From Dehalococcoidia bacterium (GTDB lineage: Bacteria; Chloroflexota; Dehalococcoidia; UBA2979), in contig OZ252046.1 of assembly GCA_965247895.1 (NCBI GenBank), positions 951,140-1,015,139 on the forward strand: a DNA stretch of 64,000 nt, given 5' to 3'. Positions 3,001 to 20,862 of the stretch are shown piece by piece. The stretch's first letter is position 1. Each line of letters starts with the position of its first letter. The notes under the pieces are model-generated. The model had not been told where the DNA came from, ran no database searches, and saw nothing but the letters and a program-made list of their open reading frames with translations. Made by a program: the position numbers and the translations under genes.

Positions 3001-3510
3001 TGTTTAAACGCCGCATGTAATCGTACAGCTCGCGCACCCATGGGTCGTCTGCTTCGTATGCGGCAACAACCCCCGTCTTCAGGAAGTGACCTCGTTGCTC
3101 ACTTTCGGACTGGGTTTTGAACCCAGGCGTACGAAGCTTGACATCGGTACCCAGGGTGACGAGGAGGGCGTAGAGCGTGTCCGCAGTCAGTCCCGTCAAG
3201 TCGAAGGTGACGGAGGTGCCGTTGGTCATCTTGCTCGTCACCAGGTCGGCGCCGTCGGGCTGGGCCCTGTACTTGAGAGCAACCGTCTGCTCCGTCGAGC
3301 CGGGATTGGCGATGGTGACTGTCACGCTCGCCGTCGTTCGTCCGGTCTCGCCGAACTCCACGCCGGTGATGTTCCCGCTTGGCGCAGCCGGCAGGTCGTA
3401 GGCATAGATCTTGACCTTCGCCTCATCGCCCACCCAGAGGGTGTTCCCGCTGGAGGTGACGCCCCACGGCGCCCCATTCTCGCGGGCCAGTTGTATCTCC
3501 GGGGGGGCTG
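1..3510 (-). CDS. C-terminal portion of giant secreted surface protein A: FN3-like modules, HEXXH Zn-metallopeptidase-like region, spondin_N-like domain, cadherin-like modules. The 3' end lies beyond the window start. Same gene as 3322..5499 after a +1 frameshift at the G7 run 3501..3507.
   Basis: Minus-strand frame with codon first bases at positions congruent to 1 mod 3 is open from 3510 to position 1. Hand translation gives ...PEIQLARENGAPWGVTSSGNTLWVGDEAKVKIYAYDL (a propeller blade)...VYLHELGHVYNAGARLMG (HEXXH)...ATYDVEFEGKWYAKVTPDGVPGGAHFSRLAGAVHNAGVSFLASGG...SPDWFVGVSGLPLLNSSGRWLRSHTVNLYPWDAGTEEG (spondin_N-like)...YETVPSHTVTVTATDPGTLSDTIIV (cadherin-like). It is absent from the ORF track because there is no stop codon inside the window. 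Confidence 0.6.
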
Positions 3511-5499: not shown

Positions 5500-6329
5500 A
5501 TCGCCCGGCTCAGGGCAGCCTGCGCCCAGGCGCGATCCGGCGGGTGGCTAGCGAACAGCGAGCCGGCCAGGCTCGCGGCCCCTGGCACCGGAAGCCGTCC
5601 GGCGAGCACGCCACGGAGCAGCACGGCGCGGAAAGTGGAACCGGTGATCTGCGCCGAAGTCACGACGGTTCCCCCCCGCAAGAAGCGCCCCCGTGGGCGC
5701 CTAGCTAGGGCAACCTAGCACGGTCGTGTCGTTCAATCGATGCATATCCGTGATAAATACGTGAAACTTTGCTCAAACCCGTGAAGTTTTCGGTGAATCA
5801 AGTCCCATTGATGCTCACCACCAGCCTTTCACGGCACGCGCCCAGGGAACTCCAGCAGCGCATAGGCCAACCCGAAGGTGAGGGCGAGTCCTCCTCAGCC
5901 CGTCTCCGGCACGCTTGCTAGTGGCTGCTCTCCGGGCGCTCGGGTCGCGATCACAGGGGTGGTGCAGCGGCACGCGCACCGGGACGACAACGATGTCCAT
6001 GTCCGGACGCTGCACCCTGTCATCGATGTCGTGGAACGTCAGCTCGGCGCCGAATTGGGCGGCCGAGGCCCTCGCCGTGTCTTCGTGTGCCATGCAGACG
6101 GCCTTGAGCTCGTAGTCAGGGCAAAGAGGCCAGCGCTGGCACGCAGCACTCGATACGGTCACGCGGCTGGGCGCGGTGGACCCGGGGCTCGTGGCCATCG
6201 AGGCGGGCCGCATCGCCGACGGCCGCCGGGAGAGCGGCGTCGGGAATAGGACAACTTGGGCGGTTCGACCGCCCGAAGCCGAACCTGGCCGGCTACGACG
6301 CGCTGCTCGCCGCGAGCACGGGATGAGCA

Positions 6330-6513
6330 CGCCCATGACCGAGCAGGCGGCCGCGCTGACGCCCCGCACACTTGACTTCACTCGCTGCGGCATACGGCCG
6401 GGAGCCAGTCGATCCTGGCCGGCACCGACCTGCTGACGGTTTCGCGGCGGCTCGGGCAAGCGTCCGCGTCGTTCACGATGGATATCTACGGGCACATGTT
6501 GCCGGGGCAATAG
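6330..6513 (+). pseudogene. Degraded C-terminus of a tyrosine recombinase (phage integrase): box II and catalytic Tyr region, disrupted by an indel
   Basis: One frame reads ...LHSLRHTAGSQSILAGTDLLTVSRRLGQASASFTMDIYGHMLPGQ* (HxLRH...Y motif), ending at a stop at 6511..6513. The preceding ALTPRTL segment is in another frame, with a stop between them. Removing a 14-nt stretch would restore ALTPRTLRHTAGS. Confidence 0.5.
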
Positions 6514-6551
6514 GGCCCTGCGGCCGAGGCGCTTGACCACTTGATCAGGTG

Positions 6552-6617
6552 AATGGCCCCAGAATGGCCCCAGATTGGCCCCAGATTGGCCCCAGGATGG
6601 CCCCAGGATGGCCCCAC
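6552..6617. repeat. 11-bp tandem repeat, 6 units (aatggccccag / attggccccag / gatggccccag), between the integrase remnant and the tRNA-Glu 3' end
   Basis: Read directly at 6552..6617. Confidence 0.8.
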
Positions 6618-6664
6618 TCGAGCCGACTGAACGAACGCATGCGGCCGAAAAGGCCTGTGAACGT

Positions 6665-6740
6665 TGGTGCCCCCAAGGGGGTTCGAACCCCTGTTTCCAC
6701 CTTGAAAGGGTGGCGTCCTGGTCCCCTAGACGATGGGGGC
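6665..6740 (-). tRNA. tRNA-Glu (anticodon TTC)
   Basis: Reverse complement of 6665..6740 is GCCCCCATCGTCTAGGGGACCAGGACGCCACCCTTTCAAGGTGGAAACAGGGGTTCGAACCCCCTTGGGGGCACCA. 7-bp acceptor stem, anticodon loop CTTTCAA, T-loop GGTTCGAA, 3' CCA. Confidence 0.9.
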
Positions 6741-6919
6741 GAGCGCTGATCGAGCATACCAAGGACCGGGCGCAGTTGCCCCCGCACGCCGCGAGGCCGC
6801 TTCGACCGCGCGACGCCCCTCGGAATCTCCCGCACTGGGTGCGTAGCTCGCGCGCTGCGGCACTGGCGCGCACGCGCCGCGTGCCGCACCATTCGAGGCT
6901 CTAAGCCAGGAGCAGCCAT

Positions 6920-8386
6920 ATGACAAGCGATCCGATCCTTCCGCAAGCCCGCATCGTCGATGAGTACGAGAGCCCCATATCGGGGTATCAGCTGCTGATG
7001 ATGGTGCGGATCGCCAACTCGCCCGGCAAGCTCGGCATGCTCGCCACCACGATCGGTGAGTGCGGCGCAGACATCGGCGCGATCGACATCTACGAGGCGG
7101 GCCCCAACCACATGGTCCGGGAGTTGCGGGTCTTCTGCCGCGACGCCGTGCATGCCCGCGAGGTCGTGGACCGGGTTGACGCCCTCGACGGCGTGGAGGT
7201 GCAGCGCGCCTCGGACCGCACCTTCCAGCTGCATCGTGGCGGCAAGATCGAGATCGCGAACAAGGTGCACATCCGCACCAACGCCGAGCTCTCCCATGTC
7301 TACACGCCCGGCGTCGCGCGCGTCTCGATGATGGTGCACGACGAGCCGGACTCGGTGTGGGCGCTGACCGCGCGCCGCAATACCGTCGCCGTCGTCACCG
7401 ACGGCACCGCGGTGCTCGGCCTCGGCGACATCGGCCCGGAGGCGGCGATGCCGGTCATGGAGGGCAAGTGCATGCTCTTCAAGAGCTTCGGCTCGATCGA
7501 CGCCTGGCCGATCTGCCTCGACACCAAGGACCCCGACCGCATCGTGGACATCGTCGAGGCGATCGCGCCGGGCTTCGGCGGCATCCTGCTCGAGGACATC
7601 TCCGCCCCACGCTGCTTCGACATCGAAGAGCGGCTCGTGGAGAAGCTGGACATCCCGGTCTTCCACGACGACCAGCACGGCACCGCCGTCGTGGTCCTCG
7701 CGGCGCTGATCAACAGCCTCAAGATCGTCGGCAAGAAGCCCGAGGACCTGAAGGTCGTCGTGCTCGGCGTCGGCGCCTCCGGGATCGCCTGCGCTCGGAT
7801 CATGCTCAACTACGGCGTGCGCGACATCATCGGCTTCGACCGCACCGGGGCCGTCTACCCCGGCCGCGAGAACCTGAACCCGGCGAAGGAGTGGTTCGCC
7901 GAGCACACCAACCCGGACGGCTTCAGCGGCGACCTGACGCAGGCGATGCGCGGAGCGGACATGTTCCTCGGGCTGTCGGGCCCGCGCATGCTCTCGCCGG
8001 AGCAGGTGGGCAGTATGGCCGACGACGCGATCGTGCTGGCACTCTCCAACCCGGAGCCGGAGATCATGCCGGAGCTGATCCAGGGCAAGGCCCGCGTGAT
8101 CGCCACCGGGCGCTCCGACTACCCGAACCAGGTCAACAACGTGCTCTGCTTCCCCGGGCTCTTCCGCGGCGCCTTCGACGCCGGCGCGAAGCGCATCACC
8201 GAGGAGATGAAGCTCGTCGCCGCCCACGCCATCGCCGAGGTCATCCCCGACGACCAGATCAACGAGGACTACATCCTGCCCTCGGTCTTCAACGAGGCGG
8301 TCGCGCGCAACGTCGCCGCGGCAGTCGCCGCGGAGGCGCGCCGCACCGGCAACGTCCGCCAGCCCGGCTCGCGGGTCTTCGTCTAG
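6920..8386 (+). CDS. NAD(P)-dependent malic enzyme with N-terminal ACT domain
   Basis: 488-aa ORF with motifs VYTPGVA, VVTDGTAVLGLGDIG and VLGVGASGIA. Confidence 0.9.
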   Translation: MTSDPILPQARIVDEYESPISGYQLLMMVRIANSPGKLGMLATTIGECGADIGAIDIYEAGPNHMVRELRVFCRDAVHAREVVDRVDALDGVEVQRASDRTFQLHRGGKIEIANKVHIRTNAELSHVYTPGVARVSMMVHDEPDSVWALTARRNTVAVVTDGTAVLGLGDIGPEAAMPVMEGKCMLFKSFGSIDAWPICLDTKDPDRIVDIVEAIAPGFGGILLEDISAPRCFDIEERLVEKLDIPVFHDDQHGTAVVVLAALINSLKIVGKKPEDLKVVVLGVGASGIACARIMLNYGVRDIIGFDRTGAVYPGRENLNPAKEWFAEHTNPDGFSGDLTQAMRGADMFLGLSGPRMLSPEQVGSMADDAIVLALSNPEPEIMPELIQGKARVIATGRSDYPNQVNNVLCFPGLFRGAFDAGAKRITEEMKLVAAHAIAEVIPDDQINEDYILPSVFNEAVARNVAAAVAAEARRTGNVRQPGSRVFV

Positions 8387-8392
8387 CCTGTC
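8111..8392 (+). repeat. Left copy (~282 bp) of an identical direct repeat. It is the native 3' end of the malic-enzyme gene; the right copy is at 10816..11097.
   Basis: Nucleotide identity from gctccgactacccgaaccaggtcaac... through ...gtcttcgtctag. The two copies diverge immediately after the stop codon. Confidence 0.85.
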
Positions 8393-8574
8393 CAGTCTCG
8401 TTAGATGCGGCGGGCGCCGTCCCTCGCACGCCACTTGATCCCGAGCCGGATCGGGCTCCTTCGCGATGTCGAACGCGACCCGCGCCACTACAACTCAGAC
8501 TGCGCCCATACCAGCCGCTCGAATGGTCCCGACACGCAGCCGGATGTGTCGCCGGATTCTGGAGATAGGGCAGC

Positions 8575-9843
8575 CTAGCTGCCGCGCAGCGTACGGAGCA
8601 GGTCGCCCATCCTGGGTGGCTGGCCGTACGCCAGCAAGTAAGCCCGGAAGAGGCGGGCCGTGAGCCAAACGACGATCGCCACGCTGAGGGAGAGGACAGC
8701 GAGACTAACGAAGACCTCCAAGCCGTCCATGCCACCGAGACTCAGCCGCATGAGGCTCGCCATTGGGGCAGTAATCGGGACGAAGCTGAGCGCCCTCGCA
8801 AGCGTCCCGTCGGGGTCATCCAGCAGGGCGGGCAGGAACCACATCGGAGCGATAGCAGGCAGCATCACGAACGCGGTGATGCTCCCCGCCTGCTGTTGGT
8901 TGGTGGTGACCGCCCCGATGGCAGCCAGCAACGTGCCAATGAGAGCGTAACCAAGGAGGAAGTAGGCAAACGCAATAAAGAGCCACCCGGCCGAAGGTAC
9001 ATGCGTCAACTCGGAGGGCGCCCCGATCATGCGGCCGAGTGCGAGTAGGAAACCGACGCCAGATACGGCCCAGACTGCCACCTGCAAGAGGCTCGCGGCT
9101 CCCAGCCCGATGAGCTTTCCGAGCATCAGATGCTCCGGCTCGATCGAGGAGAGCAACACCTCCATGATGCGGTTCTCCTTCTCCTCGGACAGACCTTGCA
9201 ACAGGTAGCCAGACGCGGTGAGCGCCGACACGACGAACAATAAGCTCACAGCGACGAAGAGCAGGCTGTCGGCCACGTCAGAGTCCTCATCGGCGGGCGC
9301 ACCCGACTCGGTCACTTCATCAATCACGAGTCGATAGGGCGTGATGATGCGCTCGATCCGCTCCGAGTCGACCTGTCCGGATGTCAGGTTCTCGACGACG
9401 AATCGGTGAAGAGCGCCATCCCGTCGGCCGGAGCCGAACAACCCGGCGCTCTCCTCCTGAACCTCCACCACCGTCCCCGTCTCCAGGTAGTCTGCGGGAA
9501 ACACGAAGAGCCGCTCGATCCGTCCTTCAAGAAGCGCGCCTGTGGCTGTCTGCCGGTCCGGGTACGCCGTGAAGACCGTGCTGCCCTGCCTCTGGAACCT
9601 GGTGAAGTGCGGCTGGCCGTCCTCGCCAGTTGTGAGGTCGACGTAGCCGAACATGAACGTTTCGGGGGGAATAGCGGAAGGAGTGTCCTCTTCGGACGTG
9701 TCAGACCTCACCGTCTGAAATACGGCGGCGCCGACGAGGCCGAGTATTGCCAGGACGGGGACTGAAGCGACGAAGATGCGGTAGGCGAGTCGGCCGAGGG
9801 TGACGGAGAACTCGTGCCGCGCGACGAGCCATGTCTTACGCAT
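8575..9843 (-). CDS. ABC-2 family transporter permease
   Basis: The ORF 8575..10050 carries a 69-aa out-of-gene N-terminal extension. The likely start is ATG at 9843 (MRKTWLVARHEF...), which overlaps the ATPase stop within ATGCGTAA (translational coupling). About six transmembrane segments. Confidence 0.8.
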   Translation of the reverse strand: MRKTWLVARHEFSVTLGRLAYRIFVASVPVLAILGLVGAAVFQTVRSDTSEEDTPSAIPPETFMFGYVDLTTGEDGQPHFTRFQRQGSTVFTAYPDRQTATGALLEGRIERLFVFPADYLETGTVVEVQEESAGLFGSGRRDGALHRFVVENLTSGQVDSERIERIITPYRLVIDEVTESGAPADEDSDVADSLLFVAVSLLFVVSALTASGYLLQGLSEEKENRIMEVLLSSIEPEHLMLGKLIGLGAASLLQVAVWAVSGVGFLLALGRMIGAPSELTHVPSAGWLFIAFAYFLLGYALIGTLLAAIGAVTTNQQQAGSITAFVMLPAIAPMWFLPALLDDPDGTLARALSFVPITAPMASLMRLSLGGMDGLEVFVSLAVLSLSVAIVVWLTARLFRAYLLAYGQPPRMGDLLRTLRGS

Positions 9844-10771
9844 GACGGTCCTCGACGACTCGAAGGAAGATCTCCTCCAGGCTCGGCGTTGCAAACTCGT
9901 ACCGGTCAATCTTCGCGCCGCGGTCGAGCAGTGTCCGCAGCACCGCCTCCGGGGGGTGGCCGCTTGCAAGTTTGAGCACGTATCCGGAACCCTCCCGCCG
10001 GGACCCGAGCACTCCGTCAATCGCCTCCGACGCCCGGTCGCTCGCGACAAAGACCTCGCTACCAGCGAAGCGGCGCTTGATCTCGGTGAGAAGGCCTTCG
10101 AGCACGAGGCGGCCGTCGTCGACCATCAGGATGCGGTCGCACAGTTCCTCGACGTCCGTCATCTGATGGGTTGAGAACATGATGGCGACGCCTGCGGCAC
10201 GCCGCTCAGCGACGATGTCCTTCATGAGTCGCACGTTGATCGGGTCCAGCCCGCTGAACGGTTCATCGAGTACGACGAATGCGGGATCATGGATGAGCGT
10301 CGCCGCGAACTGCACGAGTTGGCCGAGTCCCCGGCTGAGTTCGCGGACCTTCTTGTCCCGGTGCTCCTCGAACCCGAGACGTTCGAGGAGTTCGTTGGCA
10401 CGGCGTAGAGCGGGTTCCCGGGAGACACCTCTGAGTTCGGCCAGATAGAGAAGGTTCGGGATGACCCGGAGATTGCGGTAGAGGCCGCGTTCTTCCGGGA
10501 GGTAGCCGATACGTTCACGGGTTTCCGGGGTAACGGCGGCACCGAATATCGCCACATCCCCAGCGTCCGGCCGGATGATGTCGAGGAGCATGCGGATGGT
10601 AGTGGTCTTGCCGGCGCCGTTCGGGCCAACCAGTCCGATGATCTCGCCGGGCCGCACGGACAGGGAGACATCCTGTACCGCTATCCGGTCGCCGAACCGC
10701 TTCCACAGGCCGGTGGCCTGGACGACGGGAGTAGTCGCCGGAGTCATTGCCATAGACCGGGATCGTAGCAC
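9836..10771 (-). CDS. ABC transporter ATP-binding protein
   Basis: Walker A GPNGAGKTT, ABC signature LSRGLGQ, Walker B VVLDEP. Confidence 0.85.
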   Translation of the reverse strand: MLRSRSMAMTPATTPVVQATGLWKRFGDRIAVQDVSLSVRPGEIIGLVGPNGAGKTTTIRMLLDIIRPDAGDVAIFGAAVTPETRERIGYLPEERGLYRNLRVIPNLLYLAELRGVSREPALRRANELLERLGFEEHRDKKVRELSRGLGQLVQFAATLIHDPAFVVLDEPFSGLDPINVRLMKDIVAERRAAGVAIMFSTHQMTDVEELCDRILMVDDGRLVLEGLLTEIKRRFAGSEVFVASDRASEAIDGVLGSRREGSGYVLKLASGHPPEAVLRTLLDRGAKIDRYEFATPSLEEIFLRVVEDRHA

Positions 10772-10815
10772 GGGGCCATAGCTGTGGTGCGTCGGGGCAC
10801 GCGCTCTCCAACGGC

Positions 10816-11091
10816 CGCTCCGACTACCCGAACCAGGTCAACAACGTGCTCTGCTTCCCCGGGCTCTTCCGCGGCGCCTTCGACGCCGGCGCGAAGCGCA
10901 TCACCGAGGAGATGAAGCTCGTCGCCGCCCACGCCATCGCCGAGGTCATCCCCGACGACCAGATCAACGAGGACTACATCCTGCCCTCGGTCTTCAACGA
11001 GGCGGTCGCGCGCAACGTCGCCGCGGCAGTCGCCGCGGAGGCGCGCCGCACCGGCAACGTCCGCCAGCCCGGCTCGCGGGTCTTCGTCTAG
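10816..11091 (+). pseudogene. Duplicated 3' fragment of the malic-enzyme gene (last 81 codons, identical to 8111..8386). This is the right copy of the direct repeat.
   Basis: ORF 10846..11091 encodes MLCFPGLFRG...RVFV, identical to the malic-enzyme C-terminus. No upstream gene body is present. Confidence 0.8.
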
Positions 11092-11099
11092 GCTGTCGC

Positions 11100-11400
11100 C
11101 CCCCCGAGGGCGCTCCGATCCCCTCTCCCCTGGCGGGAGAGGGTTAGGGTGAGGGGGACTCCGAGGCAGATCGCGTGTCGCCTGCCGGGGGGCTGCGCCC
11201 CCCACACCCCATCCCGGACGAGCGCGCTGCGCGGCTCCGGCCCACCCACCCGCCCTCGGATGTTCTTTCTGTGGGGGCTCCGCCCCCACGCCCCCGCCCG
11301 GATCGGCAGCCGGAACACAGCCTCGAGGGCGCGCCTTCGGATCCCCTCTCCCGCGAGGGGAGAGGGAGCCGGAGCGCCCTCGGAACGGGGTTTTCGCAAA
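11100..11400. repeat. Two copies of a REP-like GC-rich palindromic element (cccctctccc-N4-5-gggagagggg cores inside longer imperfect palindromes)
   Basis: First copy: cgagggcgctccgatcccctctcccctggcgggagaggg. Second copy: cgagggcgcgccttcggatcccctctcccgcgaggggagagggagccggagcgccctcgg. Confidence 0.5.
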
Positions 11401-11432
11401 GGTCTCCAGAGGGAGAGCGGACAGATCGCGGC

Positions 11433-12071
11433 CTACTGGTAGGAGTAGCGCTGCTCCTTCCACGGGTCGCCGTGGATGTGGTAGCCGTACATCTCCCAGA
11501 AGCCGGGGCGCACCTCGGGCAGGAACTCGATGCCGCGCACCCACTTCGCGCTCTTCCAGAAGTAGAGCTGCGGGATCACTCCGCGCAGCGGACCCCCGTG
11601 GTCGCGATCGATCGGGTTGCTGTCGTGCGTGTGCGCGAGCAGCACGCCCTCGTGCAGCAGCTCGTCGAGCGGCACGTTCGTCGTGTAGCCGCCGTAGGAG
11701 TGGAACATCACTTCCTTCGCCTCGGGCAGCACCTTGGCGAGGGCCATCACGTCGGTGAAGCGCACGCCGCGCCAGTGGTTGTCGTAGCGGCTCCAGGTGG
11801 TCACGCAGTGGATGTCCGAGGTGTCCTCCGCCTGCGGCAGCGCGTTGAACTCCTCCCAGTTGATGCGCACTTCCTCCTCGACCAGGCCGAAGATGCGGAA
11901 CTCCCAGGTCGCGAGGTCGATGCGCGGCGATGAGCCGTAGGTCAGCACCGGCCAGCCGTCCGTCAGCCGCTGCCCCGGCGGGAGCCGATCCTCGGGCGGG
12001 CGCACCGGCTTGCGGCCGGGCAGATTGCTTGTCGTCACGACGGCTTGCTCCTCACCCTGACGTCTCGTCAA
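11433..12071 (-). CDS. Molybdopterin-dependent oxidoreductase (sulfite-oxidase fold, YedY/MsrP-like catalytic domain)
   Basis: Conserved Mo-ligand Cys motif DIHCVTTWS. 212 aa. Confidence 0.8.
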   Translation of the reverse strand: MTRRQGEEQAVVTTSNLPGRKPVRPPEDRLPPGQRLTDGWPVLTYGSSPRIDLATWEFRIFGLVEEEVRINWEEFNALPQAEDTSDIHCVTTWSRYDNHWRGVRFTDVMALAKVLPEAKEVMFHSYGGYTTNVPLDELLHEGVLLAHTHDSNPIDRDHGGPLRGVIPQLYFWKSAKWVRGIEFLPEVRPGFWEMYGYHIHGDPWKEQRYSYQ

Positions 12072-12187
12072 TGGTCCTCAGTTGGGGCGTGCGCGCTCGC
12101 GCGCGCCGCTCACAGCCATCGTAGCGGATGCACGCTCAGAGGCGAGGGCGAACGGACCGCAACGGCGCCCTTCGATAGGATGGAGGC

Positions 12188-12712
12188 ATGGAGCAGGCCG
12201 TCGCCGCGACCGGATCGGACGAGGACGCCGCGCGTCCGGGCGCGATGCGCGGGCAGCTCCGGCGCTTCGCCGGCATCGCCGCGGCGGTCGTGATCCTCGA
12301 CCAGCTGACGAAGGCGCTCGTGCGCGCCTGGCTGAGCGAGGGCGAGACCTGGCCCGAGGGCTTCGATCTGATCCGCATCTCGCACGTCGAGAACTCCGGG
12401 GCCGCGTTCGGGATCCTGCAGGATGGAGGCCCGTTCCTGATCGCCAGCTCGATCCTCGGCGCCATGATCGTGCTGATCTTCCTGCGCGCAGCCCCGCCCG
12501 GCGACCGCCTCTACGAGACGGCGCTGGCGTTGGTGCTCGGCGGCGCGGTCGGCAACCTGATCGACCGGCTCTTCCGAGGCACGGTGACGGACTTTATCGA
12601 CCCCACCCACTACCCCTCCTTCAACATCGCCGACTCCTCGATCGTGGTCGGCGTGTTCGCGCTCGCCGTGATCTCCCTCTTCCGTCCCGGCAGCAAGCCG
12701 GAGAGCGCCTGA
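12188..12712 (+). CDS. lspA: Lipoprotein signal peptidase (signal peptidase II)
   Basis: Motifs VENSGAAFG, GGAVGNLIDR and FNIADS. Confidence 0.9.
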   Translation: MEQAVAATGSDEDAARPGAMRGQLRRFAGIAAAVVILDQLTKALVRAWLSEGETWPEGFDLIRISHVENSGAAFGILQDGGPFLIASSILGAMIVLIFLRAAPPGDRLYETALALVLGGAVGNLIDRLFRGTVTDFIDPTHYPSFNIADSSIVVGVFALAVISLFRPGSKPESA

Positions 12713-13662
12713 TGCAGCAGGAACGCTTCGCCGCAGCGCGCACGGACCGGCTCGACCGGCTCGTCGCCGAGCAGCTCGTGCACCTCTCGCGCAACCAGGC
12801 GCGGCGGCTGATCGACGAGGGCCGCGTCGAAGTCGCGGGCGAGCCGCGGACCCACGCCGGCCGCGAGGTCGCCGAGGGGACCGCGATCACCGTCCGGCTC
12901 CCGGCGCAGCCGGACCTCGACGCGATGGCGCTCGACGTGCCGCTCCAGGTGCTGTTCTCGGACGAGCACACGCTGATCATCGACAAGCAGGCGGGGCTGC
13001 TGGTGCATCCCGTGCAGGGCCGACCGGCGGTCACCCTGATACACGCCGTGCGCACCCGCTACCCCGAGGTGCAGGAGATCGGCGGGACGCGCTCCGGCCT
13101 CGTGCACCGCCTCGACCGCGACACCTCCGGGGTGATCGCCTTCGCACGCTCCGCCGCCGCGCGCGACGCGCTGCGCGCGCAGTGGAAGGCGCGCGAGACG
13201 CTCAAGATCTACCTCGCCATCGCCGAGGGCGTCGTCGAGCCGCGCCGCGGCCACATCGATGCGCCGCTCGGCCCCGACCCGGCGAACCCGACCCGCCGTG
13301 CCGTCGTCGAGCGCGGCGACTCCGCGTTCAGCGAGTACCGAGTGCTGGAGCAGTACGGCGAGGAGGCCGCCTTGCTCGAAGTCCGTATCCTCACCGGCCG
13401 CACGCACCAGATCCGCGTCCACCTGCAGGCGACCGGCCACCCGATCCTCGGCGACGGCGTCTACGGCCGGCCCTCGCCGCGGATCGCGAGGCAGGCGCTG
13501 CACGCTCGCCGGCTCGGGCTGTGCCTGCCCTCGAGCGGCGAGTGGCGCGAGTTCGAGGCGCCGCTCCCGCAGGACCTCAGCGACGCCATCGACGCGCTGC
13601 GCGCCGACCACGGCGTGGAGGCGCAGCCGCTGGCGGCGTCCGGCACGGGAGGCCCGCTATGA
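12712..13662 (+). CDS. rluD: RluA-family 23S rRNA pseudouridine synthase (RluD-like) with S4 domain
   Basis: MQQERFAA... start ATG overlaps the lspA stop (TGATG). Motifs HRLDRDTSGV and GRTHQIRVH. The long ORF 12082..13662 is an out-of-gene N-terminal extension. Confidence 0.85.
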   Translation: MQQERFAAARTDRLDRLVAEQLVHLSRNQARRLIDEGRVEVAGEPRTHAGREVAEGTAITVRLPAQPDLDAMALDVPLQVLFSDEHTLIIDKQAGLLVHPVQGRPAVTLIHAVRTRYPEVQEIGGTRSGLVHRLDRDTSGVIAFARSAAARDALRAQWKARETLKIYLAIAEGVVEPRRGHIDAPLGPDPANPTRRAVVERGDSAFSEYRVLEQYGEEAALLEVRILTGRTHQIRVHLQATGHPILGDGVYGRPSPRIARQALHARRLGLCLPSSGEWREFEAPLPQDLSDAIDALRADHGVEAQPLAASGTGGPL

Positions 13663-15143
13663 GCGTCCGCGTCCGCTACGCGCCCAGCCCCACCGGCGAC
13701 CCGCACGTCGGCAACATCCGCACGGCGATCTGGACCTGGCTGCACGCCCGCCGCCACGGCGGCGCCTTCATCCTGCGCATCGAGGACACCGACCAGTCGC
13801 GCGCCGTCGAGGGCTCCGTCGAACGCATCGAGGACTCGCTGCGCTGGCTCGGCCTCGAGTGGGACGAAGGCCCCGGGGCCGGAGGCGACTACGGCCCCTA
13901 CGTGCAGTCGCAGCGCCTCGATCGCTACCACGCCGCCAGCGAGGCGCTGCTTCGCGACGGCCACGCCTACCGCTGCTTCTGCACCCCGGACGACCTGCGC
14001 ACGATGCGCGAGCGCCAGCGCGCCGCCAGCCGGCCGCAGGGCTACGAGGGCGCCTGCCGCGACCTCGACGCCGCCCGGGCCGCCGAGCGCGCCGCCGCCG
14101 GCGAGCCGCACGTGATCCGCTTCCGCATGCCGCGCGAGGGCGTCACGACGTTCAGCGACCTGATCCGCGGCGAGATCCGCTACGAGAACCGCCTGCTCGA
14201 CGACCTCGTGCTGCTCAAGTCGGACGGCTTCCCCACCTACCACCTCGCCCACGCCGTCGACGACCACGCGATGGCGATCACGCACGTCACCCGAGGCGAC
14301 GAGTGGATCCCCTCGACGCCGCGCCACGTGCGGATCTTCGAGGCGCTCGGCTACGAGCCGCCGATCTTCGTGCACACGCCGGTGATCCTCGGGCCGGACG
14401 GGGGCAAGCTCTCCAAGCGCCACGGCGCGCAGTCCGTGCTCGACTACGCCGACCAGGGCTACCTGCCCGAGGCGCTGCTCAACTTCCTCGCGATCATGGG
14501 CTGGGCGATCGACGACAAGACCGAGATCCTCTCGGGCGAGGAGATGGCCGCCGCCTTCGACCTCGCCGACCTCAACCCCGCGCCCGCCGCCTTCAACAGC
14601 GAGAAGCTGGAGTGGATGAACGGCGTCTACATGCGCCAGCTTCCCGAGGCCGACCTGACCGCGCGCTTCGCCGAGCGCCTCGACCGCGACCTGCCGGACT
14701 CGGTGGAGCGGCCGGCCGACCGCGAGCTGGTCGCGCAGTTCACCCCGCTGATCCGCGAGCGCGTGAAGCTGCTCTCCGAGGTCGCCGGCCTGACCGACTT
14801 CTTCTTCGCCGAGGACGTCCCCGTCGCCGAGCCGGACGAGTTCCTCGGGCGCTCCTTCCGCAAGCAGCCGGAGCAGGCCGCGCCCGCGCTCGCCGCCGTC
14901 GCGACGGCGCTGGAGCCGCTCAGCAGCGACTGGACTACCGAGACCCTCGAGGCCGCACTGCGCGCGCTCGCCGAGGAGTTGGGCGTGCGCGCCGGCGACC
15001 TCTTCATGCTCTGTCGCGTCGCCGTCACCGGAAAGCGCATCACCCCGCCGCTCTTCGAGACGATGGAGATCGTCGGCCCCGCCCCCTCCCTCAAGCGCCT
15101 CGCCGCCGCCGAGGCGGCCCTGCGCGCCGCCTACCCCGCCTGA
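13659..15143 (+). CDS. gltX: Glutamyl-tRNA synthetase
   Basis: HIGH motif PSPTGDPHVGN and KMSKS-like KLSKRHG. Start ATG overlaps the rluD stop (ATGA). Confidence 0.9.
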   Translation: MSVRVRYAPSPTGDPHVGNIRTAIWTWLHARRHGGAFILRIEDTDQSRAVEGSVERIEDSLRWLGLEWDEGPGAGGDYGPYVQSQRLDRYHAASEALLRDGHAYRCFCTPDDLRTMRERQRAASRPQGYEGACRDLDAARAAERAAAGEPHVIRFRMPREGVTTFSDLIRGEIRYENRLLDDLVLLKSDGFPTYHLAHAVDDHAMAITHVTRGDEWIPSTPRHVRIFEALGYEPPIFVHTPVILGPDGGKLSKRHGAQSVLDYADQGYLPEALLNFLAIMGWAIDDKTEILSGEEMAAAFDLADLNPAPAAFNSEKLEWMNGVYMRQLPEADLTARFAERLDRDLPDSVERPADRELVAQFTPLIRERVKLLSEVAGLTDFFFAEDVPVAEPDEFLGRSFRKQPEQAAPALAAVATALEPLSSDWTTETLEAALRALAEELGVRAGDLFMLCRVAVTGKRITPPLFETMEIVGPAPSLKRLAAAEAALRAAYPA

Positions 15144-15223
15144 GCGGCAGCCTCGAGGCGCACGGCGCGCCCTCGGGGGATCGTGACCACTGGCCGAGGC
15201 TTTGCTAGGGTGGAGAGGTCCGC

Positions 15224-15297
15224 TGGGGACTCGTCTAATGGTAGGACAGCTGACTCTGGATCAGTAGGTCGGGGTTCGAATCCTCGGTCCCCAGCCA
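15224..15297 (+). tRNA. tRNA-Gln (anticodon CTG)
   Basis: TGGGGAC acceptor stem, anticodon loop CTCTGGA, T-loop GGTTCGAAT, discriminator G, then CCA. 74 nt. Confidence 0.85.
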
Positions 15298-15490
15298 ATA
15301 CGCCGTATACGATTTCGGGGCCGTACTGGACAAGCTGTCCATGAACGCTGTCCGGTACGGAGCGCGGGCGCAGGGGGTAGGAGCCGCCCGGACGAGCTAG
15401 AAGAGCGAGTCTCGTTCAACGAGCAGCCGCGACTGGGGAGGTCGATATGGAGAGCTTGCTTAGCTGCTGCACGACTGAGGTGCTGGCACA

Positions 15491-17122
15491 GTGAGCACAA
15501 TAGACGGCGCTATAGACCTCACTATACCTGGGCTATCTGGAAAGCCTTTGAGCATCACAATACAAACTGGTGAATCCATCTTTGTTATGGGTGCGAATGG
15601 AACAGGTAAATCAACTCTCATACATCACCTCAATAACGAGCACAACGCGCGAGCGCGATTCATACCTGCTAATCGTCAAACATGGATGGAATCTAACTCC
15701 GTTACTATGAACTCGCGCGACAAGGAACAGACAGAACGGAATATAAGACAAGGGACCACCCGTGCTGACGCCCGGTTCCGCGACAACTATTCTGGCGCGC
15801 GAGTCAGCTTGTCCATAGCGGAGCTGCTGGCAGCTGAGGCCGCGCGAGATCACGACATCGCGATTGCGATTGATCGCGGGAAGCCCAAACGTGCGCGGAA
15901 GATATCAAGGAACCGTCCGTCGCACTTGAGAACGATTTCTTCGCTCTTACAGTCATCAGGTCTTCCAATCACAATAAGCGCTCACAATGGTGAGGAACTC
16001 CGAGCCGTCAAGCACGGACAAGAGTATAGTATCGAACAACTATCGGACGGTGAGCGCAATGCCTTTTTACTTGCCGCAACCATCCTCACTACCGAACAAG
16101 GAACGCTTTTCCTGTTGGATGAGCCTGAGAGGCATCTGCATAGGTCCATTTCAGGAAGGCTGATTTCGTCGCTCATTGCGGAGCGAGCCGACTGTTCGTT
16201 TGTAATTGCCACACACGACATTACACTTCCGAGCAAGGAAGAGGATGCCAGAGTCATTCTCTTGACGGCTTGTCAATTCAGCAACGGGCAAGCTATCGGG
16301 TGGGATGCGAAGCTCCTTCCGCAGGGCGAAGCCATAGACGAGGATATCACGAGGGATATATTGAGCTCGCGCAAGAGGATTTTGTTCGTCGAAGGCGTGG
16401 ATGGTAGCCTCGATATTGAGCTCTACCGTATCGCCTTCTCCAGCGAGAACGATATTGACGTCGTGCCCAAGGGTGGGTATCCGGCAGTCGAATCTTCGGT
16501 TAGGGCGATCCGCGGGTCCGAAGCGCTCTATTGGATGGAAGCCTTCGGTATTATCGATCGGGATGGCCGCGCAGACGATGAAGTGTCAGCCTTACGCAAG
16601 ACTGGAGTGTACCCGCTGGAGGTGTACTCCGTGGAATCGATCTACTACCATCCAAAAATCCAGAGGGAGGTAGCGGAACACTTATACGAGAGCCCAGAGG
16701 ACAAGGTTACGGCAGCTCGCGCAGCCGCCATCGAAGAGATAGCCAAGCAAAAGGAAGGCTTGGCCACGCGGGCTCTTGAGAGGATGGTGCGCCGAGCTAT
16801 CCTCGAACGAATCCCTGGACGAGAGGCTATCTCGGCAGAACTGTCTGTCCGAATTGAGATCGACATGACGGACCTACCACAAGATCCGCGTGCAGATCTG
16901 GAGCGAGCGATCGACGACAACGATCTCGAGTACATCATGAAGCACTACCCGATTAAGCCGGGCAACGTCCGGGGAGTGATCGCGCGACAACTCGGGTTCA
17001 CGAACCGGACGGCATACGAGCGGAATGTCCGCAAGGTGCTCCGTCACAGGCCTCAAGCGTTGGAGTTCGTCAGGTCCTTGCTTGGAGGCCTCCCTTCGGA
17101 CCTTACCGCTTCAGGGTCATAG
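15491..17122 (+). CDS. Fused ABC-type ATPase + TOPRIM-type nuclease domain protein (OLD / PARIS-AriAB-like), on a low-GC islet
   Basis: Walker A GANGTGKST, ABC signature LSDGERNAF, Walker B LFLLDEPERHLH, H-loop ATHD. The C-terminal half has TOPRIM-like motifs ILFVEGVDG (conserved Glu) and GIIDRDGR (DxD). GC is about 45% against about 70% for the flanks. GTG start. Confidence 0.8.
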   Translation: MSTIDGAIDLTIPGLSGKPLSITIQTGESIFVMGANGTGKSTLIHHLNNEHNARARFIPANRQTWMESNSVTMNSRDKEQTERNIRQGTTRADARFRDNYSGARVSLSIAELLAAEAARDHDIAIAIDRGKPKRARKISRNRPSHLRTISSLLQSSGLPITISAHNGEELRAVKHGQEYSIEQLSDGERNAFLLAATILTTEQGTLFLLDEPERHLHRSISGRLISSLIAERADCSFVIATHDITLPSKEEDARVILLTACQFSNGQAIGWDAKLLPQGEAIDEDITRDILSSRKRILFVEGVDGSLDIELYRIAFSSENDIDVVPKGGYPAVESSVRAIRGSEALYWMEAFGIIDRDGRADDEVSALRKTGVYPLEVYSVESIYYHPKIQREVAEHLYESPEDKVTAARAAAIEEIAKQKEGLATRALERMVRRAILERIPGREAISAELSVRIEIDMTDLPQDPRADLERAIDDNDLEYIMKHYPIKPGNVRGVIARQLGFTNRTAYERNVRKVLRHRPQALEFVRSLLGGLPSDLTASGS

Positions 17123-17169
17123 CCAAGTCGCTGCGGCGTGGAGCGCTCTCGTTGGCACCCGACCACGAC

Positions 17170-17195
17170 GAGCCCCCGGCTCTCACCGGGGGCTC
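17170..17195 (+). terminator. Perfect 10-bp hairpin (gagcccccgg-ctctca-ccgggggctc) 48 nt after the stop of the 15491..17122 gene. No U-tract follows.
   Basis: Read directly. Confidence 0.35.
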
Positions 17196-17517
17196 CCCGC
17201 CTCGTAGGTCCGGGGGCCGCTGTCAGTCCTCGTCCCACTCGTGTTCATGGGGCTCCGCGCCGCCGGGGTGCTCGTGGACGGCGTAGAGCCACTCATCGTC
17301 CTCGTGGGCGTGCCGGACCGGGCTGTTCCCCGGCGGCGGGGCGCGGGCGATGTCGGACTCCCGAACGGGGCCGAATTCCCCCTGGTACTTGTCCCGCCAT
17401 CGCTTGGTCGGCACGGCTGCACCTTCTTCTTGAGCCGCATCTCGATCTGGTAGAGCGCGCCCGCGAGCGTGCGGTGCGGGTTGGCCTCGACGAACATCGT
17501 AGCCGCCCTGCCGGGCG

Positions 17518-18891
17518 ATGCGGCGCGGGCGCTATGCTCCCGCCATGAGTCGCGAGCCCGCGGCCCCCGTGGACGACGACGAGCCGCGATCACCGCCGCT
17601 GCCCGCCGGGAGGCGTCGCGGCGTCTTCTGGGGCTGGTGGATCGTCGTCGGGGCCGTCGTCGCGCAGTTCGCGGCGATGGGCGCCGGCGGCGGGATCGCC
17701 GGCGTCTTCCTCCGCCCGATGACCGAGGACCTCGGCTGGACCGCCGCCGAGTACACGCTCGGCGGCTCCTCCGCCTTCCTGCTCGGCGGCGTCGCCGGCT
17801 TCGTGCTCGGGCCGCTCGTCGACCGCTACGGGGCGCGGCCACTGATGCTTGCCGGCGCCTGCATCTACGCGGCCGCATTCCTCGCCATGTCACGCGTCGA
17901 GGAGCTGTGGCAGTTCGTCGCGCTCTCGATGATCGCCGGCGGCGCCGGCCTCTCGATGGTCGGGCCGCTGGTCGTAAACGCGACGCTCTCGAAGTGGTTT
18001 GTCGTGCGGCGCGGATGGGCGATCGCGCTCGGCTCCTCGGGCATCTCGTTCGCCGGGCTGATCATGCCGCTGACGATGACACGCATCGTCGACTCGGCCG
18101 GGTGGCGCGACGCCTACGCGATCCTCGCCGTGGTCGTGTTCGCGATCGTCGTGCCGGTCGCCCTCGTGATGCGCCGCCAACCCGAGGACTACGGGCTGCT
18201 GCCGGACGGCCTCGAGCCCGGCGCGACCGCGGACATCGACCGCCTCGCGGCCGAGGCGCAGGCGCGCGACGCCGCGAACTCCTACACGCGCGGCGAGGCG
18301 TTGCGCACGCCCGCCATCTGGCTCCTCGTCGTCGGCTACGGGCTGAACATCCTGGCGCTTTCGGCGGTGCTGGTGCACGCCATTCCGTTCATGACGGACA
18401 ACGGCTTCACGCGCGCCGAGGCCGCGCTGGCGCTCGCGGTCAACGGCGGCGCGAACCTCAGCTCGAAGTTCGTGTGGGGCTACTGCCTGCAGCGGGTGCA
18501 CGCCCGCTACCTCTCGGCGACGGCGCTCTCGATCTCGGCGACGGGCGTGGTGACCATGCTCGTCGCGGCGCAGCTGGGCGCGCTGCCGCTGATGTTCCTC
18601 GGGTTCTTCCTCTGGGGCTTCGGGTTCGGCGGCACGGTGCCGTTGAGCGAGTTCATCTGGGCGACGTACTTCGGGCGCGTGCACATCGGGGCCGTGCGAG
18701 GCGTCGGGGCGCCGTTCACGATCGTCTTCGGGGCGCTGGGGCCGATCCTCGGCGGGCTGTACTTCGACGCGGTCGGTTCGTACGACGGCGTGTTCGCGGC
18801 GTTCGTCGTCGCCTACCTCACGGGCGCCCTCGCGATCCTCGCCTCACGTGAGCCGCCGCCGAAGCGGCTGCCCGCCGAGGCAGCAGGGTAG
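17518..18891 (+). CDS. MFS transporter (oxalate/formate antiporter-like)
   Basis: 12 transmembrane-like hydrophobic segments. An alternative start is MSREP at 17545. Confidence 0.8.
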   Translation: MRRGRYAPAMSREPAAPVDDDEPRSPPLPAGRRRGVFWGWWIVVGAVVAQFAAMGAGGGIAGVFLRPMTEDLGWTAAEYTLGGSSAFLLGGVAGFVLGPLVDRYGARPLMLAGACIYAAAFLAMSRVEELWQFVALSMIAGGAGLSMVGPLVVNATLSKWFVVRRGWAIALGSSGISFAGLIMPLTMTRIVDSAGWRDAYAILAVVVFAIVVPVALVMRRQPEDYGLLPDGLEPGATADIDRLAAEAQARDAANSYTRGEALRTPAIWLLVVGYGLNILALSAVLVHAIPFMTDNGFTRAEAALALAVNGGANLSSKFVWGYCLQRVHARYLSATALSISATGVVTMLVAAQLGALPLMFLGFFLWGFGFGGTVPLSEFIWATYFGRVHIGAVRGVGAPFTIVFGALGPILGGLYFDAVGSYDGVFAAFVVAYLTGALAILASREPPPKRLPAEAAG

Positions 18892-19015
18892 TCCCGGGCC
18901 GCGCTTTCGCGACGACCGCGTCCTCGACAGGGTGCGCGCGCGTACCGATACTCGCGCCGACGCACCAGCGAGGACGCGAGCGCGATAGCGAGCGGGTCCA
19001 GCCGAGGAGACCAGG

Positions 19016-19825
19016 ATGACGACCGCCGAAACCACGACCGACGAGCTGCTGGCAGAACGCGATGGCCACGTCCTCGTCCTGACCATGAACCGGCCCCACC
19101 GGCTCAACGCCATCAGCGGACCGATGCTGCGGGAGTTGGTGGACCAGCTCAACGCCGCGAACCGCGACCCGGAGGTGCGCTGCATCATCCTCACGGGGGC
19201 CGGCCGGGGCTTCTGCTCGGGCCTCGACCTGGTCGACCGCTCCGCTGCGCTGAACGACGAGTCGAGCGAGCGCCCGGCGCCACAGCTGTTCGACACGCGG
19301 GGCACGCCTCCGTCGACGTTGTTCCACATGGACAAGCCGGTGATCGCCGCCGTGAACGGCGCCGCCGCCGGCTACGGGATGGACCTCGCGCTGCTCTGCG
19401 ACATTCGCATCGCGGGCGAGTCGGCGAAGTTCGCGCCGGTGATGGTGAAGCGCAACGTGCTGCCCGAGTCGGGCGGCAACTGGCTGCTCCCACGCCTCGT
19501 GGGCTGGGGGAAGGCCGCGGAGATCTTCTTCCTCGGCCGCAACCTCGACGCCCGGCAGTGCCTCGAGTACGGCCTCGTGAACAGGGTCGTCGCGGACGCT
19601 GAGCTGATGACCGAGACGATGGCCTGGGCCCAGGAGATCGCGGCCAACGCGCCGATGGCGGTGCAGGCGACCAAGCGCATGATGCGCCAGGGCCTCGACG
19701 AGGGCTTCGACACGACGGTCGACCACGTCTACGGGCACCTCGGCCGGCTCTTCGCCGCCGACGACTTCCGCGAGGGCGTCGCGAGCTTCATCGAGCGACG
19801 CAACCCGGAGTTCAAGGGGCGGTAA
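19016..19825 (+). CDS. Enoyl-CoA hydratase/isomerase (crotonase family)
   Basis: Motifs GAGRGFCSGLDL and AAVNGAAAGYG. Confidence 0.85.
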   Translation: MTTAETTTDELLAERDGHVLVLTMNRPHRLNAISGPMLRELVDQLNAANRDPEVRCIILTGAGRGFCSGLDLVDRSAALNDESSERPAPQLFDTRGTPPSTLFHMDKPVIAAVNGAAAGYGMDLALLCDIRIAGESAKFAPVMVKRNVLPESGGNWLLPRLVGWGKAAEIFFLGRNLDARQCLEYGLVNRVVADAELMTETMAWAQEIAANAPMAVQATKRMMRQGLDEGFDTTVDHVYGHLGRLFAADDFREGVASFIERRNPEFKGR

Positions 19826-19909
19826 TCAGGGGACGGGACTGACCTCGAGCGACTCGTATCGCGCGCGCTCGAGGGTTCGCGGGCAGTCCCGTTGGCCGGA
19901 CGGCTACAG

Positions 19910-20644
19910 CTACCCCAGGATGCCGATGCGCATGGCGGTGAGGACCGCCTGCAGCTTCGTCGTTGCGTTCAGCTTGCGCCGGAAGTGGCGGACGTGATTG
20001 CGCACCGTGTGCAGGCTGATGCCGAGGTCGTCGGCTATCTGCTGCGTCTCCCGGCCCAGCGCCACCAGACGCAGCACCTCCAGCTCGCGCGCAGTCAGCG
20101 GCATGGTGTCGGCCGGGTCCGCTGCATCGACGGGAGCGCCAGAGACGATCTCGACTCCCTGCTCGCTCAGCTCGCTCCTGATGCCGTCCGTGGTGCGCCC
20201 GGCCTCGGGGCTATCGTCGAAGAGGTGCACCAGCAGGGGCGCGTCCATGTCGGCACAGACCGCGACCATGGGAGTGAGCTTGACCGTCTTGTGCTCCCCG
20301 GAGGCGGAGCGCATCTGCATGGTGGCAGCGCCCGGAACTCCACCGGTCCTCAGAGCGGTGATCGAGGGGCAGCCCTCCACGCATGCGGGAGTGAAGCCCC
20401 CTGGCGCCTGCCCCGCCACCACGTCGTAGCACCGCCGCCCGACGACCTGCTCGGGCGAAAAGCCGAGGATCCGCTCTGCCTCCGGGTTCCAGAACAGGAT
20501 GGTCTGGTCCAGGGACATCGCGTAGACGCCGAACGGCGCCGGGCTCAGCAGTGCGAAGATGCGTTCTGCGTTCAAGGTCGCCCACCTGTTAACACAATCA
20601 GCAGGGGGGAAATCGGTCCGTCCTGTGACGCGACGGCCCACCAT
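19910..20644 (-). CDS. PAS-domain LuxR-family transcriptional regulator
   Basis: PAS-like LDQTILFWNPEAERILGF, with a C-terminal HTH LTARELEVLRLVALGRETQQIADDLGISLHTVRNH. Confidence 0.8.
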   Translation of the reverse strand: MVGRRVTGRTDFPPADCVNRWATLNAERIFALLSPAPFGVYAMSLDQTILFWNPEAERILGFSPEQVVGRRCYDVVAGQAPGGFTPACVEGCPSITALRTGGVPGAATMQMRSASGEHKTVKLTPMVAVCADMDAPLLVHLFDDSPEAGRTTDGIRSELSEQGVEIVSGAPVDAADPADTMPLTARELEVLRLVALGRETQQIADDLGISLHTVRNHVRHFRRKLNATTKLQAVLTAMRIGILG

Positions 20645-20862
20645 GCCATGCCCGTGCTACCGATACGCCAAGAGACTTACTCACACCGGGGAGACCGTCC
20701 ATAACACAACCATGCTGGAGTGCGCCACCACGCGCCACGCTTCCCGGTGCGACCCTCCATCGGACAGAGCAGTCCCCTCCCGATCAGACGGCCGCCGGCG
20801 ACGCCGCGCCGTCCGAATTCGCTGTGCACGCCTGACAATCTTCGCGATACCGCACTCCCCCG

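Follow-up and report, generated by a model that had tools for sequence, protein, structure and literature searches.

A probable merged PARIS-type AriAB gene as sole cargo of a strain-variable tRNA-Gln slot in an uncultured Dehalococcoidia lineage

Organization and composition of the tRNA-Gln locus

The window analyzed in this study, i.e., the whole 64-kb stretch of DNA from an uncultured, high-GC lineage of the Dehalococcoidia (Chloroflexota), harbors a single gene of foreign character downstream of a tRNA-Gln gene. The product of this ariAB-like gene is most likely a merged PARIS AriAB protein with a role against phages, carried as the only cargo of a slot whose content varies between strains. 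The tRNA-Gln gene (anticodon CTG; positions 15224 to 15297, plus strand), which forms the left border of the variable interval, was identified by ARAGORN and by the Rfam tRNA model (59.2 bits), the tRNA being the only feature that was recovered by the Rfam search. It is followed by a spacer of 193 nucleotides (nt) (positions 15298 to 15490, plus strand; GC content, 0.62), in which a GAGG Shine-Dalgarno motif (positions 15478 to 15481) can be read 8 to 13 nt 5′ of the GTG start codon and in which a promoter scan identified no sigma-70-like site. The ariAB-like coding sequence itself extends from position 15491 to 17122 on the plus strand and specifies a protein of 543 amino acids (aa), its assignment being based on PADLOC and Pfam matches, codon composition, and a structural model, as detailed below. 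Its only neighbors are the tRNA-Gln gene, an open reading frame (ORF) of 63 codons, and a gene encoding a major facilitator superfamily (MFS) transporter. It stands alone, with no separate AriA or AriB partner encoded beside it, and its homologs are likewise solitary.

The composition of the ariAB-like gene sets it apart from the remainder of the window, which has a mean GC content of 0.694 (standard deviation of 0.043 across 500-nt windows) and whose lowest values in all 64 kb fall within this islet. The gene has a GC content of 54.0%, with 300-nt windows ranging from 0.47 to 0.58 and with values of 0.40 to 0.48 in 60-nt windows being confined to the vicinity of positions 15500 to 15600. At third codon positions (GC3), its GC content is 0.594, versus 0.976 for gltX, 0.953 for the MFS transporter gene, and 0.952 for a gene encoding an enoyl-CoA hydratase (ECH). 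The low-GC stretch coincides with the extent of this ORF, which is the sole long ORF with a non-host composition, and a GC content of 0.70 to 0.80 resumes directly past its stop codon. A preliminary description of this DNA had placed a tRNA-Gln gene directly before the islet and a single 543-aa gene within it, both of which were recovered here, and had reported a fall in GC content to approximately 45% immediately after the tRNA. The drop and the recovery past the stop codon are real, and a uniform GC content is excluded by the GC and codon usage data alike, but the gene stands at 54% rather than approximately 45%, and the low stretch begins with the ORF and not at the tRNA, the intervening spacer having a value of 0.62. 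The ariAB-like gene is foreign DNA that was acquired horizontally.

No integrase ORF was found between positions 15298 and 17507, and the list of ORFs contains no mobility gene that is left anywhere in the window. Furthermore, the tRNA 3′ end does not recur in the 64 kb, as assessed by a repeat search with 7-nt seeds and by a 25-nt pattern allowing up to three mismatches, in agreement with the earlier remark that no direct repeat of the attachment (att) type is apparent. The hexamer AGCCAA, which occurs at the end of the tRNA and again past the stop codon, was considered as an att repeat and rejected; it is only 6 nt long, is absent from the related locus L001 (see below), and is taken to be a chance occurrence.

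Domain architecture and family membership of the AriAB-like protein

The predicted protein comprises an N-terminal ABC-type ATPase domain (residues ~8 to 250; positions 15512 to 16240, plus strand), the TOPRIM core of a DUF4435 domain (residues 295 to 403; positions 16373 to 16699, plus strand), and a helical bundle at the C terminus, as in AriB (residues 404 to 543; positions 16700 to 17119, plus strand). The ATPase domain was detected by Foldseek and by the Pfam models ABC_tran (E value of 1.5e-10; 42.3 bits) and AAA_21 (4.3e-10; 40.6 bits against a gathering score of 27), and it contains a Walker A motif (GANGTGKST; residues 34 to 42), a signature motif (LSDGERN; residues 184 to 190), a Walker B/D-loop segment (LFLLDEPERHLH; residues 206 to 217), and an H-loop (ATHD; residues 240 to 243). 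In an alignment of 43 homologs, the Walker A, signature, and Walker B/D-loop motifs and the H-loop histidine are invariant. Within the nuclease part, the motifs ILFVEGVDG (residues 297 to 305) and GIIDRDGR (residues 353 to 360) are both present, so that all ABC and TOPRIM motifs quoted in the preliminary description have been located. The metal-binding acidic set of the TOPRIM domain (E301-G302, D304/D308, D356-x-D358, and E382) is present and invariant or nearly so among the homologs, with E301-G302, D308, D356-x-D358, R360, and E382 being strictly invariant. Based on motif order and spacing, these residues may correspond one by one to E26, D30, D88, E90, and E122 of AriB, the comparison having been drawn in this manner because no sequence alignment to AriB was obtainable.

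The assignment to merged PARIS is carried by the PADLOC AriAB profile PDLC02982, which matches the protein end to end (E value of 2.4e-52; 176 bits; residues 25 to 530 against profile positions 43 to 563 of 570), all other PADLOC defense families scoring far below it. The same profile is matched by all 43 aligned homologs, and DUF4435 is matched by 41 of them (E value of ≤1e-3; best, 5e-11). Together with the Pfam domains, this result supports the earlier recognition of a fused ABC-ATPase and TOPRIM/DUF4435 protein of the PARIS type. A full-length AlphaFold2 model (predicted local distance difference test score of 86.8) begins with an ABC head of compact form, into which a short helical segment is inserted at residues ~75 to 155; a β-hairpin then links the head to a TOPRIM core of Rossmann-like fold, after which comes the helical bundle. 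As Foldseek searches with this full-length model returned ABC heads only, namely, those of Rad50, SMC, PtuA, and other ABC proteins, the C-terminal half was modeled on its own, and the nuclease half so modeled is predicted to adopt the AriB fold, i.e., a TOPRIM domain with a helical bundle.

The family to which the protein belongs is large and of uniform length. A word-indexed protein search returned more than 2,300 homologs; among the best 120, the median length is 537 aa (60 of the 120 being exactly 537 aa) and the set of Pfam domains is the same. An exhaustive comparison with 1.84 billion representatives yielded approximately 700 clusters (at 50% identity) with an E value of ≤1e-30, nearly all of 530 to 560 aa. 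Identity to most merged AriAB proteins is 40 to 45%, rising to 58 to 72% for the closest public relatives of full length, the allele in the related genome L139 (see below) excepted. At least 80% of the protein is covered by homologs in 24 plasmid records, while the phage collection that was searched contained no full-length homolog. The preliminary description had suggested a distinct subtype, shorter than fused PARIS proteins of ~750 to 800 aa. This suggestion is rejected on the basis of the family length and of the end-to-end match to a profile of 570 positions; since such fusions have already been modeled and nearly all of the family falls within 530 to 560 aa, a protein of 543 aa with a compact head represents the norm of a very large, known merged clade.

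Exchange of cargo at the tRNA-Gln slot among related strains

Two closely related loci, L001, which was found by a genome scan with GltX, and L139, which was found via a protein fragment of 96% identity, allowed the borders of the variable interval to be defined. L001 encodes a GltX protein of 97% identity and matches the window at 96 to 97% nucleotide identity across positions 6586 to 15363 and 17508 to 19871. The high identity with L001 (96 to 98%) ends with the final base of the tRNA, between positions 15297 and 15298, which supports the earlier placement of the site at the tRNA-Gln 3′ end. Across the ~100 aligned columns past the tRNA, identity is 0.59 between the window and L001, 0.55 between L001 and the locus L081 (see below), and 0.41 between the window and L081, and alignments revealed a short core at positions ~15338 to 15363 (GTCCA...TACGGAGC) that is common to all three.

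In L001, the interval from the tRNA-Gln gene to a hairpin that is also present in the window is occupied by an unrelated low-GC gene (GC3 of 0.60) encoding a 578-aa protein with AAA_21 and OLD-like TOPRIM domains, which matches the PADLOC families Old (3e-20), AriA (3e-21), and GajA and which has the ABC motifs alone in common with the AriAB-like protein of the window. The comparative assessment of the tRNA-Gln locus that had been suggested in the preliminary description thus found that its gene content varies among relatives. L139 matches the window at 96.5% from gltX through the tRNA-Gln gene, the AriAB-like gene, and the hairpin, up to position 17243, and beyond the equivalent of this position it tracks L001, with genes for an ECH paralog and a DDN-like protein and then the MFS transporter gene. 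The order downstream of tRNA-Gln is, therefore, AriAB, hairpin, 264 nt of unique filler, and MFS in the window; AriAB, hairpin, ECH paralog-DDN, and MFS in L139; and OLD-like, hairpin, ECH paralog-DDN, and MFS in L001. From these three arrangements, it follows that the cargo of ~1.8 kb is a cassette whose borders are the tRNA end, with the short shared core, and the hairpin. The AriAB-like genes of the window and L139 are 96.3% identical, as compared with 96.5% for their flanks, and because the gene has diverged about as much as the flanks, it was present in the common ancestor of these two strains.

A more distant relative, L014 (GltX identity of 61%), has the gltX-tRNA-Gln arrangement followed by DNA of host-like GC content. 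The nearest loci retrieved by a metagenome scan with the neighboring MFS gene, at 77 to 78% identity, were uninformative as to the site because they have no tRNA upstream. As a separate difference, L139 (positions 6749 to 6783) is devoid of ~1.9 kb that corresponds to window positions 18897 to 20854, which is retained in L001 and includes an ECH gene at positions 19016 to 19825.

The right border of the cassette is represented by a conserved segment at positions 17170 to 17229 (plus strand), recognized by comparison with L001 and L139 and by RNA folding, whose first part (positions 17170 to 17195) is a hairpin with a perfect 10-bp stem (GAGCCCCCGG-CTCTCA-CCGGGGGCTC), situated 47 nt 3′ of the stop codon. 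This hairpin, which had already been remarked upon, is unique in the window, where no match would be expected by chance, and folds as RNA at −31 kcal/mol on the plus strand. The segment of ~60 nt is approximately 87% identical to positions 13568 to 13626 of L001, where it lies directly 3′ of the OLD-like gene, and it is also present in L139. Two stem positions of the L001 hairpin have changed so as to form G-U pairs, leaving the stem unbroken on the plus strand and interrupted on the minus strand, a pattern which, as derived from two sequences, weakly favors a terminator acting on the plus strand. A terminator scan made no call at the hairpin because it is not followed by a T-run. This segment probably terminates transcription, and it forms the right border of the cassette that is exchanged.

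Immediately beyond lies a filler of 264 nt (positions 17244 to 17507, no strand assigned) that is high in GC content and specific to the window, as judged by blastn, alignments, and composition, and that stands in place of the two host-type genes (ECH paralog and DDN-like) of L001 (positions 13627 to 15014) and L139. It belongs to the variable interval and not to the defense cassette. The 63-aa ORF (positions 17223 to 17414, minus strand) falls mostly within this filler and has a host-like GC3 of 0.89; it gave no Pfam or PADLOC match and has no homolog in any of the fetched loci.

Association of AriAB homologs with mobile elements and defense islands

Besides the L139 allele, the closest full-length homolog is P0001, encoded on L081 (72% amino acid and 77.6% nucleotide identity). 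L081 harbors a 48-nt copy of the tRNA-Gln 3′ part (45 of 48 positions identical; positions 2523 to 2570) located 218 nt upstream of its AriAB gene, with no full tRNA, and this fragment is preceded by unrelated DNA that includes a TrbL conjugation gene. The fragment is an att-type junction, representing either the attR of a conjugative element that is inserted in a tRNA-Gln gene upstream of this same slot or, if AriAB is the terminal cargo of an element, the attP side of the latter, the L081 contig being too short to choose between the two. A G-to-A change in the fragment converts a G-U pair of the T-stem to an A-U pair; because pairing is thereby preserved, the fragment reflects a different but valid tRNA-Gln allele rather than random decay.

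Other homologs are found in comparable settings. Two are located 280 to 320 nt downstream of tRNA-Met and tRNA-Arg genes, respectively, and have GC3 values of 0.62 to 0.64 in hosts with GC contents of 0.68 to 0.70. In one case, an intact phage head module comes next; in the other, nothing of a phage is left past the homolog but a 70-aa piece of a cement gene, beyond which lie host genes, and the latter is therefore a decayed prophage that retained its defense gene. P0002 (58% identity; L082, positions 172 to 7152) lies inside a type I restriction-modification system, flanked by hsdS on one side and by hicAB-hsdR on the other, with an integrase gene nearby, a placement which is suggestive, being in keeping with a system that is known for sensing anti-restriction proteins. 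A further homolog lies among toxin-antitoxin genes and a transposase gene. A functional tie between the encoded nuclease and tRNA-Gln (e.g., a resistant or cotranscribed tRNA) was also considered and rejected, because L081 has only the nonfunctional 48-nt fragment, L001 has an OLD-like gene at this position, and other homologs lie at tRNA-Met and tRNA-Arg; the link is positional.

The ariAB-like gene most likely arrived as att-proximal cargo of a tRNA-integrating element, either a prophage or a conjugative one, of which no other gene is left, and the slot is probably a remnant of such an element. The cargo has since been exchanged from strain to strain, for which homologous recombination via the conserved borders is the probable route. 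In this respect, the slot resembles the P2/P4 hotspots (Rousset 2022) and tRNA-linked islets, in which a single conserved site, likewise involving a tRNA 3′ end in the case of the latter, carries varied defense cargo of atypical composition. Unlike these precedents, the site in the window is without an integrase gene, cos site, or phage backbone and holds one gene, bounded by the tRNA and the hairpin, as established by comparison of three related genomes.

Relationship to characterized PARIS systems and proposed mechanism

PARIS is known both as a two-gene system and as a single-gene fusion, with profiles described for AAA_15-DUF4435 and AAA_21-DUF4435 fusions, the DefenseFinder threshold for the latter being 20 bits (Rousset 2022, PMC9122126). 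In the two-gene form, a hexamer of AriA sequesters AriB until a trigger such as Ocr binds AriA, upon which the freed AriB, whose active site is likewise known, dimerizes and cleaves tRNA-Lys(UUU) together with a small number of other tRNAs. An Ocr-type trigger, abortive infection, and tRNA cleavage are known for two-gene systems only (PMC11464382, PMC12409363).

The protein described here shows no architectural difference from other merged PARIS proteins, sharing with them a single chain of ~540 aa in which a compact ABC ATPase precedes a DUF4435 TOPRIM domain and helical bundle, the end-to-end profile match, the lack of a partner gene, and an association with mobile elements or defense islands; the difference lies in its host, an uncultured, high-GC Dehalococcoidia lineage. 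The two-gene PARIS of Escherichia coli B185, in contrast, consists of AriA (464 aa) and AriB (305 aa) (PDB 8ux9 and 8v45 to 8v49), and its two parts are here fused, such that the nuclease cannot leave the AriA hexamer. In addition, the ATPase part is approximately 250 aa rather than 464 aa, and a short helical insertion is present instead of the long coiled coil and trigger-binding region of B185 AriA. Similarity to B185 AriB is undetectable by a search of profile hidden Markov models against sequences.

By analogy with E. coli B185, the N-terminal compact ABC ATPase would act as the AriA part, i.e., as sensor and motor, and the C-terminal DUF4435 TOPRIM nuclease with its helical bundle as the AriB part, i.e., as effector. 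The ATPase part would hold the nuclease in check until the binding of a phage protein, possible triggers being anti-restriction DNA mimics like Ocr, and an ATP-dependent rearrangement would then allow two TOPRIM domains to pair. The paired nuclease would be expected to cut, within the anticodon stem-loop, one host tRNA or a few of them, with the result that translation stops and infection is aborted. With sensor and effector covalently joined, activation is envisaged as a rearrangement in cis within an oligomer and not as release of the nuclease. A bolder proposal, which we put forward only tentatively and regard as rather improbable, is that the interval from the tRNA to the hairpin is a dedicated one-gene slot of this Dehalococcoidia lineage, at which unrelated single-chain ATPase-TOPRIM defense genes (AriAB and OLD-like) are exchanged without an integrase or att repeat, and that the compact merged AriAB found there is activated in cis in a way distinct from the release and dimerization of two-gene PARIS, possibly against another RNA target.

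Weight of the evidence and alternative explanations

Several points weigh against the assignment of the gene as a merged PARIS system. The Pfam DUF4435 model (PF14491) gave 26.6 bits (E value of 6e-6), just below its gathering score of 27, the presence of this domain being supported by the predicted fold, and the E. coli AriB structure in the PDB was reached neither by the C-terminal sequence nor by a C-terminal profile. Searches of the PDB by sequence with the full-length protein and its profile returned generic ABC ATPases and, weakly, AriA (E values of 1e-3 to 4e-6), and the link to the experimentally studied system therefore runs via profiles and fold. As regards function, the release step of the known PARIS mechanism cannot apply as such to a fused protein, and no experiment on any merged AriAB was found in the literature searched. 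The proposed origin from an integrated element is indirect, since the window holds neither an integrase gene nor an att repeat. The L139 allele adds two further points. Its reading frame is broken by two 1-nt insertions in short homopolymers (at the equivalents of window positions 16157 and 16249), such that the allele (L139 positions 2222 to 3855) is split into two called ORFs, of 258 aa for the ABC part and 253 aa for the DUF4435 part, which reflects either homopolymer error in long reads or assembly or a real decay or resplitting of the fusion. Furthermore, the ratio of nonsynonymous to synonymous differences between the window and L139 is 37:21 in AriAB versus 43:55 in gltX and the MFS gene pooled (Fisher P = 0.02), and this raised nonsynonymous share fits either an arms race or relaxed selection. 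The protein differences between the two alleles cluster downstream of the L139 frameshifts, with no enrichment in the helical insertion.

Of the alternatives, all of which are weaker than the assignment to merged PARIS, the least improbable is a class 1 OLD-type protein, that is, a single-chain nuclease which degrades DNA or another substrate upon disturbance of a host process such as RecBCD rather than a trigger-sensing tRNase. Class 1 OLD proteins (P2 Old and Thermus scotoductus OLD, PDB 6p74) have the same layout, with an ABC ATPase joined to a TOPRIM domain in one chain, and are associated with defense, an OLD-like gene holds the same tRNA-Gln slot in L001, and a review (PMC10568477) leaves open whether AriAB fusions work like class 1 OLD. 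However, the protein of the window has no Pfam OLD-like_TOPRIM match (PF20469) at an E value of ≤0.001, its closest structural match is not OLD, and the PADLOC Old model is not among its 25 best-scoring families, as opposed to 176 bits for AriAB. Moreover, 11 PARIS clades have been defined, two of which are merged ariAB, and merged AriAB falls within the AriB tree with a single origin from the two-gene clade 9 (Burman 2024, PMC11464382). An OLD-type function is, consequently, regarded as unlikely.

Less likely again is that the gene represents an addiction or stabilization module, similar to toxin-antitoxin systems, left behind by a decayed mobile element and without a present role in phage defense. 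The annotation of AAA_21 as a putative AbiEii toxin, the presence of homologs on plasmids, at the ends of prophages, and amid toxin-antitoxin genes, the disappearance of mobility genes from the window, and the raised nonsynonymous ratio and broken frame of L139 would all be compatible with such a module; yet the ORF is intact with every catalytic residue that is invariant in the family, its divergence from L139 in step with the flanks indicates retention since their common ancestor, the alternative cargo of the slot is also a defense-type gene, and PARIS systems have been found experimentally to act against phages. As for an ordinary ATPase subunit of an ABC transporter, a reading suggested by some source annotations and JGI homolog names ("ABC-type Mn2+/Zn2+ transport system ATPase subunit"), by the ABC_tran match, and by the NCBIfam matches, which are to transporter and ABC-F ATPases alone, the latter matches score far under their cutoffs (e.g., 51.8 versus 380), no permease or binding-protein gene is located alongside, and 270 aa of TOPRIM and helical domain are fused to an ATPase of foreign composition. 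This reading is effectively refuted by the domain architecture.

Other features of the window

Further regions of the window depart from the typical composition or encode candidate defense functions. A second defense-type ATPase of 433 aa is encoded at positions 31193 to 32494 (plus strand), with matches to Pfam AAA_21 (1.6e-25) and AAA_15 and to the PADLOC family HEC-01A (PDLC04184; E value of 4.8e-61), in surroundings of mildly low GC content (~0.61); it is adjoined by an ORF of 197 codons (positions 32495 to 33088) that has no Pfam or PADLOC match. Positions 42575 to 44452 (minus strand), in another stretch of lower GC content (0.58 to 0.62), encode a protein of 624 aa that contains leucine-rich repeats as well as SWM_repeat domains. 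Lastly, positions 2501 to 3250 have a GC content of 0.56 to 0.58 and contain ORFs without a Pfam match (e.g., positions 2741 to 3007 and 3086 to 3544).

Significance of the merged AriAB gene

The tRNA-Gln locus described here is an ordinary but cleanly delimited defense hotspot, and current understanding is unchanged by it, as the type of system, its fusion variants, and tRNA-linked hotspots have all been described before. Its contribution is the addition of a merged PARIS gene for an uncultured, high-GC lineage of the Chloroflexota, together with a clean natural case of a strain-level swap of defense genes, in which the same borders enclose AriAB in two of the genomes and, in the remaining one, an OLD-like gene. 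Proteins of the fused AriAB type are numerous, forming hundreds of clusters at 50% identity, yet they do not feature in the experimental literature searched. As the nuclease is tied to its sensor in these proteins, any merged AriAB, the present one included, may serve to address how a PARIS system in a single chain stays off and how it is switched on.

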